Below are positions 1 through 8,044 of a stretch of 41,687 nucleotides of DNA, piece by piece; the stretch's first letter is position 1; every line of letters begins with the position of its first letter. Source of the stretch: a virus (Duplodnaviria; Heunggongvirae; Uroviricota; Caudoviricetes); IMG/VR virus record IMGVR_UViG_2585427754_000009; one strand, 5' to 3'. Position numbers and translations under genes: made by a program. A model generated the notes under the pieces. The model had not been told where the DNA came from. It searched no databases and worked only from the letters and a program-made list of their open reading frames with translations.

Positions 1-1164
1 TTACACATCATTAGTACCTTCCTTATTTTTTGACTGGGACAAATTTGGGACCGATGGGTTCAGGATCGAGTCTATTTGCCGTGCGTGTTCGGTAAGGTGA
101 TTAGGTGCAAGGTGAGCATATCGACGAACCATTTCGATAGACTCCCAGCCTCCCATTTCCTGTAACACTGACAACGGGACTCCGGCTTGAACCAGCCAAC
201 TTGCCCAGGTGTGTCTCAAGTCGTGAAATCTGAAATCATCAATACCAGCCCGTCTCAGCGCCGCTTTCCAGGCTGTGTTTGCGTCATACCGCATCTTCCT
301 TACTGTTGGCGCTTTCGTTCCGTCTGGTTTGGTACAGCTTTCCTTGTACACAAATACCCAACGGTGATGATTCCCGATTTGTTTTTTCAATACGCGACAT
401 GCAGTATCATTCAGCGCAACGCCAATTGCGCGGTTTGATTTACTCTCTTCCGGGTTTATCCATGCCACCCGGCGCTGCATATCTATTTGTTGCCATTCAA
501 GGTTGATGATGTTCGAGCGTCTTAAGCCTGTTGCCAGTGCAAATTCAACAACAGACTTTAATGGCTCCGGACATTCATCAATCAGCCTTTGTGCTTCATG
601 GGGCTCCAGCCAGCGGATCCGTTTATTCTTTGGTTGAGGCACTTTAATAATTGGTGCCTTATCCAGCATTTTCCATTCACGCTCTGCGGCTCTTAGTAGG
701 GCCTTTATAAATGAAAGATGCGTAGCCTTCGTTGCAACGGACGCTGGTTTTGGCGTGTATTCTGGAACAGGTTTCCCTTTTTTTCTGCATGCTTCTGCCC
801 TGAGTTTCCAGTTTTCCTCATGACGCCGGTTCGTCATTTTCTGCATTGCTGAATAAATTTTTGATTCAGTAATGTCTCTTAGTTGCATTCCTGCGAAATG
901 TTGAAGCCAGAATCCGATCCGGCTTTTGTCATCGTCCAGTGATTTTTTATGTGCTTTCTCTTCAAGCCACCTGACACACGCTTCCTCGAACGTTATATCA
1001 GGTATTTCACCAAGTTTGCTGACCCGCCATGCTTCAGCCTTTAGCTTGTCATGGAGTTCTGTCGCCTGCCTTTTGTCCTTTGTTCCAAGAGACTGTTTAA
1101 ATCTTTTACCGTTCGGCAATGTGAAACTGGCGTACCATATTTCACCTCTGCGGAAGAGTGACAT
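1..1164 (-). CDS. int: Tyrosine integrase, P22/SfV-type
   Basis: 387-aa ORF with stop at 1-3. N-terminus [14 protein letters not shown] and C-terminal HDLRHTWAS...MVRRYAHL (R-H-R-Y recombinase signature). Recognised from memory as P22-type Int. Last gene of the leftward operon; 5' end overlaps xis. Confidence 0.95.
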
Positions 1165-1391
1165 TTTCTTTCCTCTGTTATGCCATCACCCGCGCTCACC
1201 TGGACAGTATGCAGCGGAGACTGAAGAGCCGCAATGCAGGCTTGTCGTGTTGTGAGGTAAGGAGATTTATTCTTAGTGGGATCTTTGCGTGTTGCCTGAA
1301 GACGCCCTGTGCGTATCCAGTTAATGGCAGTCGGTCTGGATATCTTGAGAAAATGACAGGCCTCATCGAGTGTGAGGCTGTATGGCTCCAT
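1041..1391 (-). CDS. xis: Excisionase, P22 Xis-like (116 aa)
   Basis: Internal Met of ORF 1041..1475 gives [31 protein letters not shown] (HTH), matching P22 Xis from memory. ATG at 1389-1391 overlaps the stop of the upstream ORF (TAATG on coding strand). 124-bp out-of-frame overlap with int. Confidence 0.85.
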
Positions 1392-1696
1392 TATTTCACC
1401 TCTTGCTGTGACATTGTTGAAAAATGGATACCAGCTCGTTGCTGCCAGACGATCCAACCGAGAGTCATATCCCATGCCATGTATTCGTTATCGCCGTTTT
1501 TTGCTCTCCGACGATCTACTAAGTCACCGAAACGCTTTTCCATGAATAATTCATAAGCTTCGCGTTCATCTGGTTCTACTTCCAGAGATAGGAGTGCGAT
1601 TTCATAAGCACGGCGCTCAATATCGTCTCGCACGTCAAGGCTGCTGATACGCTCTTTAATTTCTTTAATCAGTTCTTTGTCGGTAAAAGTGGTCAT
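1391..1696 (-). CDS. Hypothetical early protein (YfdT-like, 101 aa)
   Basis: ORF translationally coupled to xis (TAATG) and to the upstream ORF (start at 1696 where that ORF ends). Size and position match the CPS-53 yfdT slot from memory. Confidence 0.7.
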   Translation of the reverse strand: MTTFTDKELIKEIKERISSLDVRDDIERRAYEIALLSLEVEPDEREAYELFMEKRFGDLVDRRRAKNGDNEYMAWDMTLGWIVWQQRAGIHFSTMSQQEVK

Positions 1697-2058
1697 TATG
1701 CTCCAGCCTCCGGTGCTTTTGGCATTACTGCCCAGTGAGTGATATTGACGTTTTCAAGGTCCCCGACCTGAAATGTCCACTGCCATTCTCCGGTTTCTTT
1801 TTGTCCCCAGGTGTACCAGAGAGAACGCCAGCCAATTAGCCAGCCTTCTCCGTTAGCATCGAATAACAAAACACTTTCATTTGCTGGTGGCAGTTCAGTT
1901 GACACTGGTATTACTTTGTTTTCCTGTGCTGCACATTTAGCTTCAAGCGCATCGAATTTACGCACCAGGTATTCAGCATCTGTTTCATTTACTTTCAGAT
2001 CTCGCGGTACACATCTCCCACGAAGAAACCCTTCCATTTCGAAAACATTCATGCGCAT
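1696..2058 (-). CDS. Hypothetical early protein (YfdS-like, 120 aa)
   Basis: ORF in the same leftward operon; overlaps the upstream HD-domain gene by 10 bp. Confidence 0.7.
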   Translation of the reverse strand: MRMNVFEMEGFLRGRCVPRDLKVNETDAEYLVRKFDALEAKCAAQENKVIPVSTELPPANESVLLFDANGEGWLIGWRSLWYTWGQKETGEWQWTFQVGDLENVNITHWAVMPKAPEAGA

Positions 2059-2585
2059 TTGCGTAACTCCGATAACTCGTTAAAGCGTTCCATAAACATC
2101 CCGTAGGCATGGCCCGGTGCCAGTGGAATCACGTTGAACATCTCTGTTGCCGGGATACCTTCCAGTACAGGCCAGAAAGAGCCATCATCAAGCCCGAGAT
2201 CGCGGCGTTCGGTTGCCAGCATGATGAGATCGGCATATTTCACGGGCGTACTCATAACTGGGGGTAACCCGTATTTCTCACGGATTACGGCGTCTATTTT
2301 TTCTTCCATTTGTTTATAGTCAGGAAGAAGGCGTTTCAGTGGTGCGGGAATGTCCTGGCAATACGCTTCTGTTGCATCATGCATTAACGCTTCAAAAGCA
2401 AATTCCTGCGGCACCAGCTGGCTGCAAAGAACCGCATGTTGGGCGACGCTGTAGAAGTGCGAAAGATGACCGGCAAAGCGACAGATATTTGAAAGGGAAA
2501 CCGCGATATCGTTAATATCGATGTCGTCTTTATTTATCCTGTCATAATAAAAATGCTTCCCGGAAAAAGTTTTAATAAATGACAT
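2049..2585 (-). CDS. HD-domain phosphohydrolase (YfdR-like 5'-deoxynucleotidase, 178 aa)
   Basis: Internal start MSFIKTFSG with GGAG 7 nt upstream (longer ORF reaches 2612). H..HD metal-binding motif (LMHDATEAY) and further His/Asp residues typical of the HD superfamily. Confidence 0.8.
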   Translation of the reverse strand: MSFIKTFSGKHFYYDRINKDDIDINDIAVSLSNICRFAGHLSHFYSVAQHAVLCSQLVPQEFAFEALMHDATEAYCQDIPAPLKRLLPDYKQMEEKIDAVIREKYGLPPVMSTPVKYADLIMLATERRDLGLDDGSFWPVLEGIPATEMFNVIPLAPGHAYGMFMERFNELSELRKCA

Positions 2586-2712
2586 TTTGTTCTCCACGTA
2601 TATGCGCTGCACCGCGCTGAATTCTGGTAAAAAGAATCCCTCACCATCCGGCGATTATTGAGTAAATTACGTTTCCATAAATGCCCCCGCAGGGGCATTT
2701 GCAGTAATGAAA

Positions 2713-3537
2713 TCAGGCGGTGAAAGTACCAATAAAGGTTTCTACTTTGCTGTCCTTGAATTTCTCAACAAGCAGATCACGAAATTCGTTAGCCATTTCT
2801 TCCTGCACCGCCTCCAGCTGAATAATGCGCAGAACCAGTACAGGACGATCGCCAGTGATAATACTGAGGCGTAATTTAAACGGACGTTCTTTCAGACCTT
2901 CAAACGGAACGCATTTAAATTCAAATGCCACTGGCATAATGTCTTTGGTCTTCGCTTCGACAGACTCCATCAGGGAGCGTTTGCCGCTGAAGTCATTATC
3001 TTCAAAATCAGCGGTCTGGTTTGCTTCAATCGTGATTTTACGGACAGCCGCAGCCGCTTTTGTTGCCTGAATAGCGTCACCATTAGCATCAAAGCCCACA
3101 AGATAGTCGGCCCAGTCTTCAATCCATTCTGCCAGTGACTTCTGGGAGTTACGCTCGCCGTTAACAGACAACAGAGCAGAGAACGGTGCTGTCTTTTTCA
3201 GTTTGAGTGTGGCGGTGTTATCTGCGTGACCTGGTTCATCAATAGTACCCAGGTTAAGCACACTGACGGCACGCATATTATCAGCATCGATAAAGCAGCG
3301 GGTGCCTTCATCTGCAAGATCTTTAGAATAACGGGTAAAGTCATCGATGCTGGCAGTGGAAAGCGCACCACGGAAACGGAAGCGATTTAAATTAAATTTT
3401 TCCAGATCATGAATGCGGAAATTCTCAGGCAATGCCACAGCATCGGCACCAATCTTACTGATAATTTCATTAACACCCTGAGCAGAAATAAGGGCATGGA
3501 TTTGATTAATTGCGGTTGCGTCTAAGTTCTGAGACAT
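2713..3537 (-). CDS. DUF2303 / YfdQ-like protein (274 aa)
   Basis: 274-aa ORF beginning [14 protein letters not shown]; recognised from memory as the YfdQ family of CPS-53-like prophages. Same leftward operon. Confidence 0.75.
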
Positions 3538-3602
3538 AATAAGTCCTCACTATATAAAGATATTCAGTGATGAGATAAATAATCAGTTAATTAAAAACGA
3601 TA

Positions 3603-3965
3603 TTAACGACCTGCTGCGCGGAGTTTTCCGTCAGGTTCACCGGCAAGAGTCAGTAACTGTCCCTGGTCTTCCTGCAGAATAGTCAGGCGACCACCGCGAT
3701 TGACATACATCGGCGTTTCGGTGGTGTCTTCTTCGGAAATTTTCCCGCGGTTAGTCGGGCGAACATATGAGAGTTTGTGTTTGATTTTCACACGGTTCTC
3801 ATCAAATGGTTCGATTTCCAGGTTGAGTGAGACCTTACCTTTGGTTTTCGTGTTCATCACACCGGAAGCGACTTCACTGAGAACTGCGCCGATTTTGGTT
3901 TCAAATACGCCGCCGTCCAGCTCCCCGATAAATGCCTGCACATCAGTACTGCGTTCGCTAGCCAT
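3603..3965 (-). CDS. Hypothetical early protein (YfdP-like, 120 aa)
   Basis: Start chosen at MASERSTDVQ (ATG at 3963-3965) because AGGAG lies 9 nt upstream; the ORF-track start at 4214 lacks an RBS and runs into structured non-coding DNA. Confidence 0.7.
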   Translation of the reverse strand: MASERSTDVQAFIGELDGGVFETKIGAVLSEVASGVMNTKTKGKVSLNLEIEPFDENRVKIKHKLSYVRPTNRGKISEEDTTETPMYVNRGGRLTILQEDQGQLLTLAGEPDGKLRAAGR

Positions 3966-4433
3966 TTTGCTGCTCCTCATCATATCGACCCTGCAAGGCC
4001 GATTAGTTTCTCCACAAAACAGAGAAGAACACCTGCGGTGGCAGCCGCCCGGATGGATTGGGTTATGAGCCCGTCGTCCGGTGATGCTCTTCTCTGTTTT
4101 GTAAAAAGGACGGTACCAGCCGGAAGCAAGAGTACAAGCTGGTACCGCCAGGACTACACACAGCATAAAGTTGTGGTGCCGGGTGCCTCCCGGTGCCTGG
4201 CGAAGGTTGCACACCAGGCGGGTGGGTATCTACAGAAGGTCGACTGTCAGCCTCAACCTTAACCCGCGTGCGCTGAGCCGCATTCACCACAACGCTAAGA
4301 ATTCTCTCTGGTTGAAAATACTTAGCTGTTATGTGCCTGCTTTTAGCCACATCAGGCGAGGTGGACCTGGTTATTCCCCAACAACAAGGATTCGGTTAAT
4401 CTGGTTATCCCCAACAACGCAAAAGGAAAAGAA

Positions 4434-4868
4434 ATGTCCGGTAATATCTACACGCTGTACAAATCCCACTGTGAAAATGTTGGAAAGTATCGGGGCATTG
4501 AAATCAGTGGGGTAGTGTCATCAGTCGAAATAAGCAAAGTCGAATCAAGGGCAACATTACTTACTCTTCTGGACCTTGTCTTACATGAGCACCGGAAGAA
4601 ATTCGGCACTCCCTATAATCAGTTGAATGGGAAAAAGGCTCTGGTTCACCTTATTCTGATGAAGCATCACTGGATGCCAAAACAGATTAATGAGATGAAA
4701 TTTGATGAACTTCTTCTTTCAATTCAGGATGAACTCACACTTGATAAAATAAGCGTAACCGCCCAGAAATTTTTAGATTATCGAGACTGGAGATCACAAA
4801 TTCATCACTTTGATGATTTTGACGAAAATGAATGGGATCCTAATTTGTCTGCACAATATCTAAAGTAA
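4434..4868 (+). CDS. Hypothetical protein, 144 aa, no family recognised
   Basis: ORF with AAGGAAAAG Shine-Dalgarno-like sequence 5-13 nt upstream of the ATG. Opposite orientation to the surrounding leftward operon. Preceded by two 18-19-bp direct repeats. Confidence 0.5.
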   Translation: MSGNIYTLYKSHCENVGKYRGIEISGVVSSVEISKVESRATLLTLLDLVLHEHRKKFGTPYNQLNGKKALVHLILMKHHWMPKQINEMKFDELLLSIQDELTLDKISVTAQKFLDYRDWRSQIHHFDDFDENEWDPNLSAQYLK

Positions 4869-4983
4869 CATCCTGTGATAAAACCGTGATTTCCTGATCC
4901 AGTTTTTTTAAGGAGTCTATTATTTCCTGTCGATAAGACAGCACTTCACGAAGCTGGTTTATAGCTGCCAGCTTCTTTGCCAT
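4840..4983 (-). CDS. Small ORF (47 aa), possible remnant of a leftward-operon gene
   Basis: In the pre-insertion reading frame a stop lies 2 codons upstream of the IS target site, so only a 47-aa ATG-initiated ORF (MAKKLAAINQLREV...) is possible. Weak RBS. Confidence 0.25.
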   Translation of the reverse strand: MAKKLAAINQLREVLSYRQEIIDSLKKLDQEITVLSQDVTLDIVQTN

Positions 4984-5031
4984 CCACTCGTAAATTTCCT
5001 CATTTGTGTATCCGGGCGCGACGATTTTGGG

Positions 5032-5040
5032 TTCTGTTTT
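5032..5040. repeat. Target-site duplication (TTCTGTTTT), left copy
   Basis: Identical 9-mer at 6097-6105 directly flanks the other IS end. Confidence 0.9.
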
Positions 5041-6096
5041 GGCTTTGTTGAATAAATAAGATTTCGTGCGAACGACCCTGTAGCTGGCTGGATTTTCAGG
5101 CAATACGCACGCTTTCTGGCATCCCAGCCTTTGTCATCCTGTTCAACGCACGCACCATGGCCATAGCTTCCGCTACCTGACCATCGTAGTCACGCAGCGT
5201 CAGTGAATCTCCCAACAACTGCTTCATTCTGTACATTGCCGTTTCCGCTATCGAGCGACGGTTATATTCCGTTGTCCATTTCCACCGTGCATTGCTTCCG
5301 CTCAGCCGCTGATTAGCAACGGCACGGTTGCGGTCTGCGTACTCACCGGGCCAGTAACCTGCTCCTTTTCGGGGAGGAATAAGCGCGCTGATTTTTTTGC
5401 GGCGCAGTTCATCGTGACAGAGCCGGGTATCGTAAGCCCCGTCTGCCGCGGCTGCCCTGATTTTTCTGTGAGTCTGCCGGATAAGGCCCGGGAAGGCTTC
5501 TGAGTCCGTGACGTTATTCAGCGACAGGTCTGCACAGACAACTTCATGTGTGTTGCTGTCAACAGCAAGATGCAACTTTCGCCAGATACGACGGCGCTCT
5601 TTGCCGTGCTTTCTGACTTTCCATTCGCCTTCACCAAAGACCTTCAGCCCGGTGGAATCAATCACCAGGTGTGCGATTTCACCCCGGGTGGACGTTTTGA
5701 AACTGACATTAACCGACTTTGCCCGCTTACTGACACTGGTGTAATCCGGGCAGCGCAACGGAACGTTCATCAGGGCAAAAATGGAATCAATAAAACCCTG
5801 CGCAGCCCGCAGGGTCAGCCGGAATACGCGTTTAATCACCAGAACGGTGGTGATGGCGAGATCAGAATAGCGCTGGGGCCTTCCTCGTGATGAAGGCGTT
5901 GCCGACTCATACCAGGCCTGAATCGCTTCATCATCCAGCCAGAAAGTGAGGGAGCCACGGTTGATGAGAGCTTTGTTGTAGGTGGACCAGTTGGTGATTC
6001 TGAACTTTTGCTTTGCCACGGAATGGTCTGTGTTGTCGGGAGGATGCGTGATCTGATCCTTCAACTCAGCAAAAGTTCGATTTATTCAACAAAGCC
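5041..6096 (-). mobile_element. IS903-like insertion sequence (IS5 family), 1056 bp
   Basis: Terminal inverted repeats GGCTTTGTTGAATAAAT(A/C) at 5041-5058 and 6079-6096 (17 of 18 identical). Single transposase ORF. Flanked by a perfect 9-bp direct repeat. Confidence 0.92.
5096..6064 (-). CDS. IS903-family transposase
   Basis: 322-aa ORF ...QKFRITNWSTYNKALINRGSLTFWLDDEAIQAWY... recognised from memory as IS903/IS102 transposase (DDE). True start may be a few codons inside the ORF. Confidence 0.92.
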   Translation of the reverse strand: MKDQITHPPDNTDHSVAKQKFRITNWSTYNKALINRGSLTFWLDDEAIQAWYESATPSSRGRPQRYSDLAITTVLVIKRVFRLTLRAAQGFIDSIFALMNVPLRCPDYTSVSKRAKSVNVSFKTSTRGEIAHLVIDSTGLKVFGEGEWKVRKHGKERRRIWRKLHLAVDSNTHEVVCADLSLNNVTDSEAFPGLIRQTHRKIRAAAADGAYDTRLCHDELRRKKISALIPPRKGAGYWPGEYADRNRAVANQRLSGSNARWKWTTEYNRRSIAETAMYRMKQLLGDSLTLRDYDGQVAEAMAMVRALNRMTKAGMPESVRIA

Positions 6097-6105
6097 TTCT
6101 GTTTT
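6097..6105. repeat. Target-site duplication (TTCTGTTTT), right copy
   Basis: Identical to 5032-5040. Confidence 0.9.
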
Positions 6106-6359
6106 GTGCATTTCACACCTCCTCAAGTTATCAGTTACTTGTTGATGGGGACCAGATTGTTAAAGAGCTAAGCGTCCTGTAGGGCGCTTTTTTGTTGCTA
6201 ACGAATCATCCTGGACTTCATATGCCCCAGGCGGCTACTTCGTGGGCGTCCTGCCTGTTCGTTTTTGACATTTACTGACTGCTTACGACACATGCACCGT
6301 GTTGCAACCAGATTTTGTTGTAATCCTGTAGTTGGTCTGGAACAAAAGATAAAATTAAA

Positions 6360-6396
6360 TTGCTAGATATGCAAGTGATATTTGCGGGATATGCAA
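6360..6396. promoter_or_regulatory. Putative OL operators (two 15-bp sites)
   Basis: TTGCTAGATATGCAA (6360-6374) and TTGCGGGATATGCAA (6382-6396) match TTGCGTGATAAGCAA in the cI-cro intergenic region at 13 of 15 positions; TTGC...GCAA dyad. Confidence 0.5.
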
Positions 6397-6409
6397 ATTG
6401 ATAGGTAAT

Positions 6410-6430
6410 AAAAAGCCACCTTTCGGTGGC
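6410..6430 (-). terminator. Intrinsic terminator downstream of cI
   Basis: GCCACC-TTTC-GGTGGC hairpin (6415-6430); on the minus strand it is followed by a U5 run (A-run 6410-6414 on plus). Lies 20 bp after the cI stop. Confidence 0.6.
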
Positions 6431-6449
6431 CGATGGAAGGATATTGAGG

Positions 6450-7142
6450 TTAATTATGTCTCTTAAGGGTTTGCGACTGACTGATTAAGACCTTTCCAAA
6501 GACCATGAATCGGTGTTCGTTTTCGCTAGTAATTCCCCATTCACGGTAAATCTGGTTATCAGAAATCACCAGCAGTTTGTCAGGAATCATTTGAAGTCTT
6601 TTAACGTATATTTTGTCATCAAAACCAAAGACATATATACCATCACCATCAAACTGATTGATGCTGACATCAACGAAGATGAGATCTCCTGGCTCAATGG
6701 TTGGACACATACTGTCCCCACGAACGTTGATAACTTTGATGTGATTGGCTGGTCGTCCGCCGAACATTGATACAGCATTATCAGTTCTGTATTCGATGGC
6801 ATGAATCACATCAATGACATCACCGCCCTGGATAAGGCCATTTCCCGCACTGGCACTGATATCCAGCATTTCAATACGGAACACATCCTTCACCTGCGCA
6901 ACATCCTCATCATTACTGTTTTTATATACAGTATTACTTTTGTGGGCAGAGGTAAAGAGATCAGCAATATCAACACCTAAGCTCTTGGCAATATTACTCA
7001 GTGTTTGTTCGGTAAATTGTTTTTGCTTACCCGTTTCTAAGCGCGAGATGTTCGCCGCATCTACTCCTATTGCTTCAGCGAGATCGGCGATTTTCATGTT
7101 CTTCGCTTGGCGAAGTTGTCTGACTCGGTTTCCTATGTTCAT
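6450..7142 (-). CDS. cI: CI-type repressor (HTH_XRE + S24 LexA-like peptidase)
   Basis: N-terminal HTH (KIADLAEAIGVDAANISRLETGK), Ala-Gly cleavage site (SASAGNG), catalytic Ser (VRGDSMCPT) and Lys (VKRL). Divergent from cro. Confidence 0.9.
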   Translation of the reverse strand: MNIGNRVRQLRQAKNMKIADLAEAIGVDAANISRLETGKQKQFTEQTLSNIAKSLGVDIADLFTSAHKSNTVYKNSNDEDVAQVKDVFRIEMLDISASAGNGLIQGGDVIDVIHAIEYRTDNAVSMFGGRPANHIKVINVRGDSMCPTIEPGDLIFVDVSINQFDGDGIYVFGFDDKIYVKRLQMIPDKLLVISDNQIYREWGITSENEHRFMVFGKVLISQSQTLKRHN

Positions 7143-7162
7143 GCGTTTATTACATTTCTTTA

Positions 7163-7225
7163 TTGCGTGATAAGCAAATCAACTTGCGCAAAATAATTGC
7201 GTGAAATAACATGCATAACGCGCAA
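7163..7225. promoter_or_regulatory. OR operator region between cI and cro
   Basis: TTGCGTGATAAGCAA (7163-7177), palindrome TTGCGCAA (7184-7191), TTGCGTGA repeat (7197-7204), and a reverse-strand match TTGCGCGTTATGCAT (7211-7225). Sits between divergent cI and cro starts. Confidence 0.55.
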
Positions 7226-7239
7226 TATTTGGAGGGCGT

Positions 7240-7500
7240 ATGCAATCACCATTACGAAATGTGCGTAAGGCGCATGGTTTCACTTTGCAGCATGTTGCTG
7301 CGGGTGTTCAAGTCAATCCAGCGACGTTGAGTCGTATTGAGAGGCTGGAGCAGATTCCATCTATCGAGCTTGCAGAACGTTTAGCCAATTTTTTTAAGGG
7401 TGAAGTCAGCGAAATGCAGATTCTTTATCCGGCACGTTTTCAATCTAGCCAAAACCAGAATGGGTTTAAACCACAGGAACAGGAGGTGAACCGTGGGTAA
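7240..7500 (+). CDS. cro: Cro-like HTH_XRE regulator
   Basis: 86-aa ORF with HTH (FTLQHVAAGVQVNPATLSRIERLE); GGAGGG 4 nt upstream of the ATG; divergent from cI. Confidence 0.85.
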   Translation: MQSPLRNVRKAHGFTLQHVAAGVQVNPATLSRIERLEQIPSIELAERLANFFKGEVSEMQILYPARFQSSQNQNGFKPQEQEVNRG

Positions 7501-8044
7501 GCATCACTGGAAAGTAGAAAAACAGCCTGAGTGGTACGTGAAAGCTGTCAGAAAAACTATCGCAGCGTTGCCGGGGGGGTACGCTGAAGCTGCTGACTGG
7601 CTGGATGTAACAGAGCACGCATTATTTAACCGCCTTCGTGCCGATGGCGATCAGATTTTCCCGCTGGGATGGGCAATGATTTTGCAACGTGCTGGTGGAA
7701 CTCACTTCATTGCTGACGCTGTGGCGCAGTCTGCAAATGGCGTCTTTGTGTCTCTTCCTGATGTCGAGGATGTGGACAACGCCGATATCAACCAACGCCT
7801 GCTGGAAGTCATTGAACAGATCGGCAGTTATTCAAAACAGATTCGTTCAGCAATTGAAGACGGTGTAGTGGAACCGCATGAGAAGACAGCAATTAACGAT
7901 GAGCTGTACCTCTCAATTTCGAAGCTGCAGGAGCATGCAGCTCTGGTCTACAAAATCTTTTGCGTTTCAGAAAGTAGTGACGCCCGCGAGTGTGCAGCTC
8001 CGGGCGCCGTGGCGTGTCGTGACTGTGGAGAAACTAACGCATGA
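7493..8044 (+). CDS. CII-like regulatory protein (CP76 / YdaT-like family)
   Basis: GTG start with AGGAGGTGA RBS. 183-aa product [21 protein letters not shown]... recalled as the phage CII (CP76)/YdaT-like family found after cro-like genes. Confidence 0.6.

Follow-up and report, generated by a model that had tools for sequence, protein, structure and literature searches.

The 15-bp palindromes that flank the cI repressor gene in the stretch of viral DNA analysed here are very probably the operators of an SfII-type lambdoid immunity region, bound by the cI repressor dimer and by Cro. This stretch, the window, comprises 41,687 nucleotides (IMG/VR virus record IMGVR_UViG_2585427754_000009, Caudoviricetes) and carries a lambdoid prophage with the immunity of Shigella phage SfII. 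Its immunity region (6100-7600) is 99.1% identical to SfII. The arrangement is the standard lambdoid one, in an immunity type whose operators were previously unannotated; the GenBank record of SfII contains annotations of cI, cro and the cI terminator, and operators are absent from it. The two genes concerned are divergent, with 97 bp between them:

6450-7142, (-) strand: cI repressor, 230 aa, with a Pfam HTH_3 N-terminal domain and a Peptidase_S24 autocleavage domain
7240-7500, (+) strand: cro, 86 aa, HTH_3 by Pfam, labelled Cro in the SfII record

Within the cI protein, HTH_3/HTH_26 covers residues 7-64 and Peptidase_S24 residues 104-218 (Pfam), and sequence matches in the PDB are UmuD and the 434 repressor (1per). 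The protein is 99.6% identical to SfII CI. Read directly, the recognition helices are AANISRLE in cI and PATLSRIE in Cro, with an SR-E core common to both.

The first-pass annotation of this DNA had described a 15-bp motif, TTGCNNGATANGCAA, repeated on both sides of cI, and such a repeat is indeed present. The pattern has exact (+) strand matches at 6360-6374, 6382-6396 and 7163-7177, and a copy with two mismatches lies on the (-) strand at 7211-7225. The two copies downstream of cI start at 6360 and 6382, 22 bp apart as had been stated. Between cI and cro, where 'one to three' copies had been proposed, two canonical copies (7163-7177 and 7211-7225) were found together with a half-site at 7184-7198. 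Dyad-symmetric sites of one motif are present at several places, in the cI-cro gap as well as past the opposite end of cI, just beyond the cI terminator. They are listed here as left operator (OL) and right operator (OR) sites:

6360-6374: predicted operator OL1, TTGCTAGATATGCAA; exact motif match, 15.6 bits, conserved as part of OL
6382-6396: predicted operator OL2, TTGCGGGATATGCAA; exact match, 16.9 bits, starting 22 bp after OL1
6414-6431, (-) strand: cI terminator of the rho-independent type, GGCCACCGAAAGGTGGC plus a T run; called by a terminator scan and also annotated in SfII
7163-7177: predicted OR site A (OR3-like, beside cI), TTGCGTGATAAGCAA; exact match, 18.2 bits, invariant halves
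7184-7198: OR middle element B (OR2-like), TTGCGCAAAATAATT; left half-site only in the window, low score
7211-7225: predicted OR site C (OR1-like, beside cro), ATGCATAACGCGCAA; 17.8 bits, invariant outer bases

The centres of sites A and C are 48 bp apart. The pattern TTGC-N7-GCAA has exactly three exact matches in the 41.7 kb (6360, 6382 and 7163), all adjoining cI, and the fourth copy, at 7211-7225, reads ATGC-N7-GCAA. An independent repeat finder returned the three copies as one family (D1) and the copy at 7211-7225 as inverted (I2/I7). With a weight matrix, four hits of at least 14 bits were obtained, all of them within the 866 bp from 6360 to 7225; shuffled windows of 41.7 kb are expected to give 0.28 such hits each. 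When a matrix was trained solely on loci with a cI N-terminal domain differing from that of the window, the same four sites came out as the top four of the window.

Conservation was analysed in 243 loci whose cI has the same recognition helix (DAANISRLETGKQKQF) and is 71-100% identical. These loci fall into four groups, the E. coli/Shigella SfII type, the mEp460/Stx2 type, the Salmonella 118970_sal3 type and the Klebsiella Kp4878 type, and provide 159 unique OL and 86 unique OR sequences, the latter aligned without gaps. A motif search in relatives had been put forward in the first-pass annotation, with absence of the motif as the refuting outcome; the motif is present at the same positions across the 243 loci and all four lineages. 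Site positions are kept; variation is concentrated in the centres, with next to none in the outer bases. Exactly two OL sites were found in 156/159 unique sequences, and throughout the lineages they lie 22-24 bp apart. Within the OL sites, TGC at positions 2-4 and GCAA at positions 12-15 are fixed; a purine (G or A) occupies position 5 and a pyrimidine (C or T) position 11, with variation at positions 6-10. Across the 86 unique OR sequences, the pattern is as follows:

7163-7167: TTGCG, invariant; left half of site A
7168-7173: variable; centre of site A
7174-7178: GCAAA, invariant; right half of site A
7180-7191: CAACTTGCGCAA, invariant; holds the middle element B and the -35 of the rightward promoter (PR)
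7211-7214: ATGC, invariant; left half of site C
7215-7220: variable; centre of site C
7221-7225: CGCAA, invariant; right half of site C

On this sequence comparison, the true consensus is the 15-bp palindrome TTGCR-N5-YGCAA. The central GATA of the motif as first described does not belong to it: GATA is lineage-specific, and even phages whose cI proteins are identical differ in the centre.

Three further observations concern individual sites. In one relative, locus L035 (IMG/VR UViG 2529293213_000044), OL1 and OL2 are merged into one site by a 22-bp deletion between the repeats. In the window, position 5 of OL1 (6364) is a rare T, the base being G in 79/80 close relatives; as a singleton in a conserved half-site base, it may weaken OL1 in this prophage, which is disrupted by an insertion sequence (IS). 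Finally, the centres of sites A and C look exchanged between the SfII and mEp460 (L003) lineages. GTGATAA in site A of the window resembles the reverse complement of site C of mEp460 (GTGATGA), and the reverse complement of site C of the window has GCGTTAT, similar to site A of mEp460 (GCGTTAA).

No motif hit above 5 bits was obtained in SfV and SfIV, which have flanking DNA in common with the window, or in PhiR47_2. In SfV, another repeat (GGGTACA) occupies the matching OR and OL locations. PhiR47_2, with a cI that is 43% identical and has a different recognition helix, has AACCA/TGGTT dyads instead, as judged by eye. Among the loci compared, the motif accompanies this cI/cro allele whatever the host, and a different repeat replaces it in heteroimmune relatives. 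Immunity specificity can be read from the sites, as had been anticipated, because heteroimmune SfV and SfIV lack the motif and SfV has the other repeat at the same places. The gene domains, the conserved positions and the allele-linked swap agree in supporting the earlier proposal of a lambdoid arrangement in which the sites are putative operators of this very repressor. No occurrence of the four operator sequences, in the form of the window or of its close relatives, was found in the literature searched. The SfIV/SfII genome paper notes only the existence of an operator/promoter switch, and in the Qin paper 'mEp460' concerns a different phage module.

Three promoters, the leftward early promoter (PL), PR and the maintenance promoter (PRM), can be placed on the sites:

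6346-6374, (-) strand: predicted PL, -35 TTGCAT (6374-6369) inside OL1, 17-bp spacer, -10 TATCTT (6351-6346)
7149-7177, (-) strand: predicted PRM, -35 TTGCTT (7177-7172) inside site A, 17-bp spacer, -10 TGTAAT (7154-7149)
7184-7212, (+) strand: predicted PR, -35 TTGCGC (7184-7189) in element B, 17-bp spacer, -10 TAACAT (7207-7212), running into cro

Site C overlaps the -10 and the likely start site of the predicted PR. Transcription is predicted to start at about 6339 (-) from PL, at about 7219 (+) from PR and at 7142 (-) from PRM. The complement of the PL -10, AAGATA, is invariant in the E. coli/Shigella lineages, and the Klebsiella layout is TTGCGT-17-TATCTT. Both hexamers of PR and their 17-bp spacing are kept in all lineages. 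ATTACA at 7149-7154, the PRM -10, is invariant in the 86 unique OR sequences with variable flanks, and the layout of PRM is equal in sal3 and Kp phages. The PRM -10 lies exactly 6 nt before the ATG of cI, with no Shine-Dalgarno sequence (SD) ahead of the ATG, from which a leaderless cI mRNA is predicted as the probable product of PRM. The PRM of lambda yields a leaderless cI mRNA.

The motif might instead mark promoters as such, TTGC being merely the -35 element (TTGnnn) of the three promoters and its GCAA partner incidental. TTGCnn does coincide with the predicted -35 in OL1, B and A, followed in each case by a 17-bp spacer and a -10. However, OL2 and C lie outside the -35 positions and both of their halves are still kept, GCAA is invariant at exactly 7 bp in 156/159 OL and 86/86 OR sequences despite variation between the two halves, and heteroimmune phages with equivalent promoters lack the motif. 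We consider this explanation very unlikely.

If the sites are operators, the switch would work as follows. The helix-turn-helix domains of the cI dimer and of Cro would recognise the 15-bp TTGCR-N5-YGCAA palindromes, the outer 4-5 bp of the half-sites being read directly and the central 5 bp not base by base, so that the centre may tune affinity as in phage 434. All three promoters would have the TTGCnn half of an operator as their -35: that of OL1 for PL, that of B for PR and that of A for PRM. In the lysogen, PL would be blocked by cI bound at OL1 and OL2, and PR by cI bound at C (-10/+1) and B (-35). Occupation of A by excess cI or by Cro would turn PRM off, and self-cleavage of the S24 domain, triggered by the SOS response, would lift repression.

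A number of points weigh against the assignment of the sites as operators and against the switch outlined above. The pattern of three sites on each side, as in lambda, 434 and P22, was not found: OL has two sites, not the three of lambda, and OR has two canonical sites plus a middle site that is merely a half-site in the window. No BLASTP alignment was obtained between the cI N-terminal domain and Cro. A single site of 15-18 bits is attainable in a shuffled window (maximum 17.9 bits), and because of this the case for operators rests on clustering and conservation. A consensus promoter scan gave no sigma-70 promoter at threshold in 6050-7550, and the predicted hexamers match the consensus at 7-8/12 positions, with TTG kept throughout and TAnnnT kept in PL and PR; TGTAAT of PRM lacks the A demanded by the scanner. 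Since the scanner called none, the promoters rest on conservation and manual reading, not on score. Site A, the best match, overlaps the -35 of PRM, and hence the order of occupancy needed for a working switch is not readable from the sequence. Element B is centred at about -49 from the predicted PRM start, compared with about -42 for OR2 in lambda, so that activation of PRM in the manner of lambda is unsupported.

Another regulator, such as the CII-like protein or a host factor, could bind the sites. The gene in question follows cro:

7493-8044, (+) strand: CII-like gene of the Phage_CP76 (phage 186 type) family by Pfam

The CII proteins of lambda and P22 recognise TTGC-N6-TTGC, so the half-site TTGC is the tetranucleotide of the lambda CII box, and one such direct repeat is present at 7285-7298 inside cro. 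The sites, however, are inverted repeats with N7 and not direct repeats with N6, the CII encoded here is of the 186-type CP76 family and not of the lambda CII family, and the motif co-varies with the cI/cro cassette, whereas the downstream YmfL/CII-like gene region still matches in heteroimmune phages. We rate binding by another regulator marginally below the promoter explanation. The direct repeat itself, TTGCAGCATGTTGC on the (+) strand, is not conserved in the Salmonella and Klebsiella relatives and is probably due to chance; a lambda-type CII box was rejected on orientation, spacing and CII family.

A role for the palindromes as RNA hairpins in early transcripts (a stem of 5 bp with a loop of 5 nt), and not as DNA sites, is extremely unlikely. 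Each site could form a short stem-loop, and the copy inside cro was flagged as a terminator-like hairpin, but the stems are invariant and hence provide no covariation in support of pairing. Moreover, A, B and OL2 lie upstream of the predicted transcription starts, shuffled sequence folds just as well as the PL leader (z = 0.38), and an Rfam scan of the window gave no matches. Chance similarity of AT-rich intergenic sequence is practically negligible as an explanation: whole-window counts of loose patterns are not above shuffles (TTGC-N7-GCAA, 3 versus 1.6 expected), but the four hits of at least 14 bits crowd into 866 bp, and the comparative data, with sites conserved by position across four lineages, refute it.

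The predicted operators were compared with known switches. As in lambda, cI and cro are divergent with operators in the intergenic region, the leftward early promoter beyond cI has an operator cluster of its own, and the repressor combines a DNA-binding N-terminal domain with an S24 domain for self-cleavage; cI mRNA from the maintenance promoter is probably leaderless, and adjacent sites are about two helical turns apart. Unlike in lambda, the sites are 15 bp and not 17 bp long, the DNA-binding domain is HTH_3 (434/P22-like) and not of the lambda cI fold family, OL has two sites and a distance to OR of just about 0.8 kb, the OR site in the middle is degenerate and is placed differently relative to PRM, and CII is of the 186/CP76 type. 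A precedent for an OL without a third site is provided by the Stx phage 933W (PMC3317979). 933W is likewise a lambdoid switch with a two-site OL, although its repressor and operator sequences are unrelated to the motif described here.

Phage 434 provides a parallel in fold. Its repressor belongs to the HTH_3 fold family, the cI N-terminal domain being 32% identical over 62 residues, and in both systems the outer 4-5 bp of the operator are invariant and the centre is variable. In 434, the operator centre is uncontacted yet tunes affinity. The 434 operators are 14 bp long (ACAA-N6-TTGT), and differ from the sites here in half-site sequence and in the odd site length of the latter. Residues Q28, Q29 and Q33 of the 434 repressor contact bases; the aligned positions of the window cI are A, A and R, and its specificity must therefore differ from that of 434. 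This substitution fits a different half-site being read by the same fold. A 'putative operator region' is recorded for SfV (GenBank U82619), a sister serotype-converting Shigella phage with homologous flanks and with a repeated dyad at the same OR and OL locations, but with another cI/cro allele and a GGGTACA-type motif.

The region between A and C contains three half-site copies, TTGCG at 7184, CGCAA at 7187 and TTGCG at 7197, which form no canonical 15-mer. Element B is taken as a putative degenerate OR2-like site, 21 bp from A, because Klebsiella lineages have TTGCGCAATTCGC(T/C)A in the register 7184-7198, a near-full site of up to 12.4 bits. As a third OR site, the everted palindrome CGCAA-N5-TTGCG (7187-7201), midway between A and C, was also considered and ruled out: its right half is weakly conserved, and the orientation of its half-sites misfits the binding mode implied by the other sites. 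A 13-bp tandem repeat, TTGCGCAAAATAA / TTGCGTGAAATAA (repeat family D8), was set aside likewise, as it is not conserved outside the lineage of the window. A candidate fifth site lies within cro:

7261-7275 (cro codons 8-12): candidate site D, GTGCGTAAGGCGCAT; fifth-ranked matrix hit, 11.7-12.5 bits

The Salmonella and Klebsiella relatives have TTGCGnAAATCGCAT (TTGCG-N5-CGCAT) here, with 13.5-16.1 bits. Their amino acids differ from those of the window; the Leu TTG and Ser TCG codons are fixed and neighbouring synonymous positions vary. It is plausible that site D is an operator, and as a conserved intragenic site it might add a looping or roadblock element.

While a lambdoid arrangement is biologically standard and the surprise modest, polymorphism around the sites is the most interesting loose end. 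Nucleotide diversity was compared along the region in 80 loci whose cI is 99-100% identical. It stays near zero (about 0-0.003) in cI and cro, but reaches 0.05-0.11 across 6356-6414 and 0.09 at 7224-7238, which holds the spacer between the SD and the ATG of cro. Segregating columns number 30/60 in the OL stretch and 20/693 in cI. Thirteen loci that are identical over 1,197 bp of flanks have nine OL haplotypes and four SD-ATG variants; many of the OL variants differ by single bases. Within the variable OL stretch (centres, spacer and right flank), the half-sites are constant islands. The OL peak is repeated in the Klebsiella, Salmonella and mEp460-type lineages, making four independent lineages in all, and in each the OL1-OL2 stretch ranks as the most polymorphic section of the immunity region (locus ranges: L007-L086, L090-L129 and L170-L249). 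The 3-4 nt SD-ATG spacer of cro is polymorphic to an equal degree in the SfII lineage, with a weaker peak nearby in Klebsiella and none in the mEp460-type lineage. SfV-type loci peak at the operators and the cro SD spacer too, although as a control they are not clean, their cI being patchily diverse. One possible cause of the polymorphism is that repressor affinity and Cro translation are repeatedly retuned by adaptation, which would set induction thresholds; another is a hotspot of mutation or of short-patch recombination where DNA is bound by the repressor. That the operators are a fast-evolving tuning device, and not just conserved sites, we regard as possible but on the unlikely side.

The analysis provides an operator consensus and maps the sites of an immunity type found commonly in serotype-converting and Stx2 prophages of Shigella and E. 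coli and that also has Salmonella and Klebsiella relatives. The site map lets homoimmunity be predicted from sequence. Among Stx2 phages, Stx2a_1447, Stx2a_WGPS2, phiSTEC1575-Stx2k and 1720a-02 carry this immunity type, and the sites are defined targets for induction studies of Stx2 phages with this repressor. The variants of the operator centre constitute a natural series for studying how uncontacted bases tune a genetic switch.

Beyond the immunity region, the prophage is a mosaic. SfIV-like sequence (99.8%) makes up the arm from the integrase to PL (1-6200) and SfII-like sequence (99.1%) the immunity cassette from 6200 onwards. The two meet near 6200, just left of 6200-6260, a stretch common to the window and SfV. 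On the (+) strand at 6170-6195, AAGCGTCCTGTAGGGCGCTT and a T run after it form a rho-independent terminator, oriented against the leftward PL transcript. After the terminator, on the (-) strand, comes AGCTCTTTAACAA, which resembles a boxA element; no N-like gene was identified. The SfIV-like left arm is interrupted by an insertion of about 1 kb (about 5050-6097) that separates the PL leader from the early-left genes; its right end is placed near 6079-6097 by eye. The insertion encodes a 322-aa open reading frame (ORF; 5096-6064, (-) strand), which is read as an IS5/IS903-type transposase, judged by eye from its sequence alone. A short ORF on the (-) strand, starting at 6112 behind a GAGGAGG Shine-Dalgarno sequence, is broken off after 5 codons. 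Leftward early expression may be defective in this prophage.

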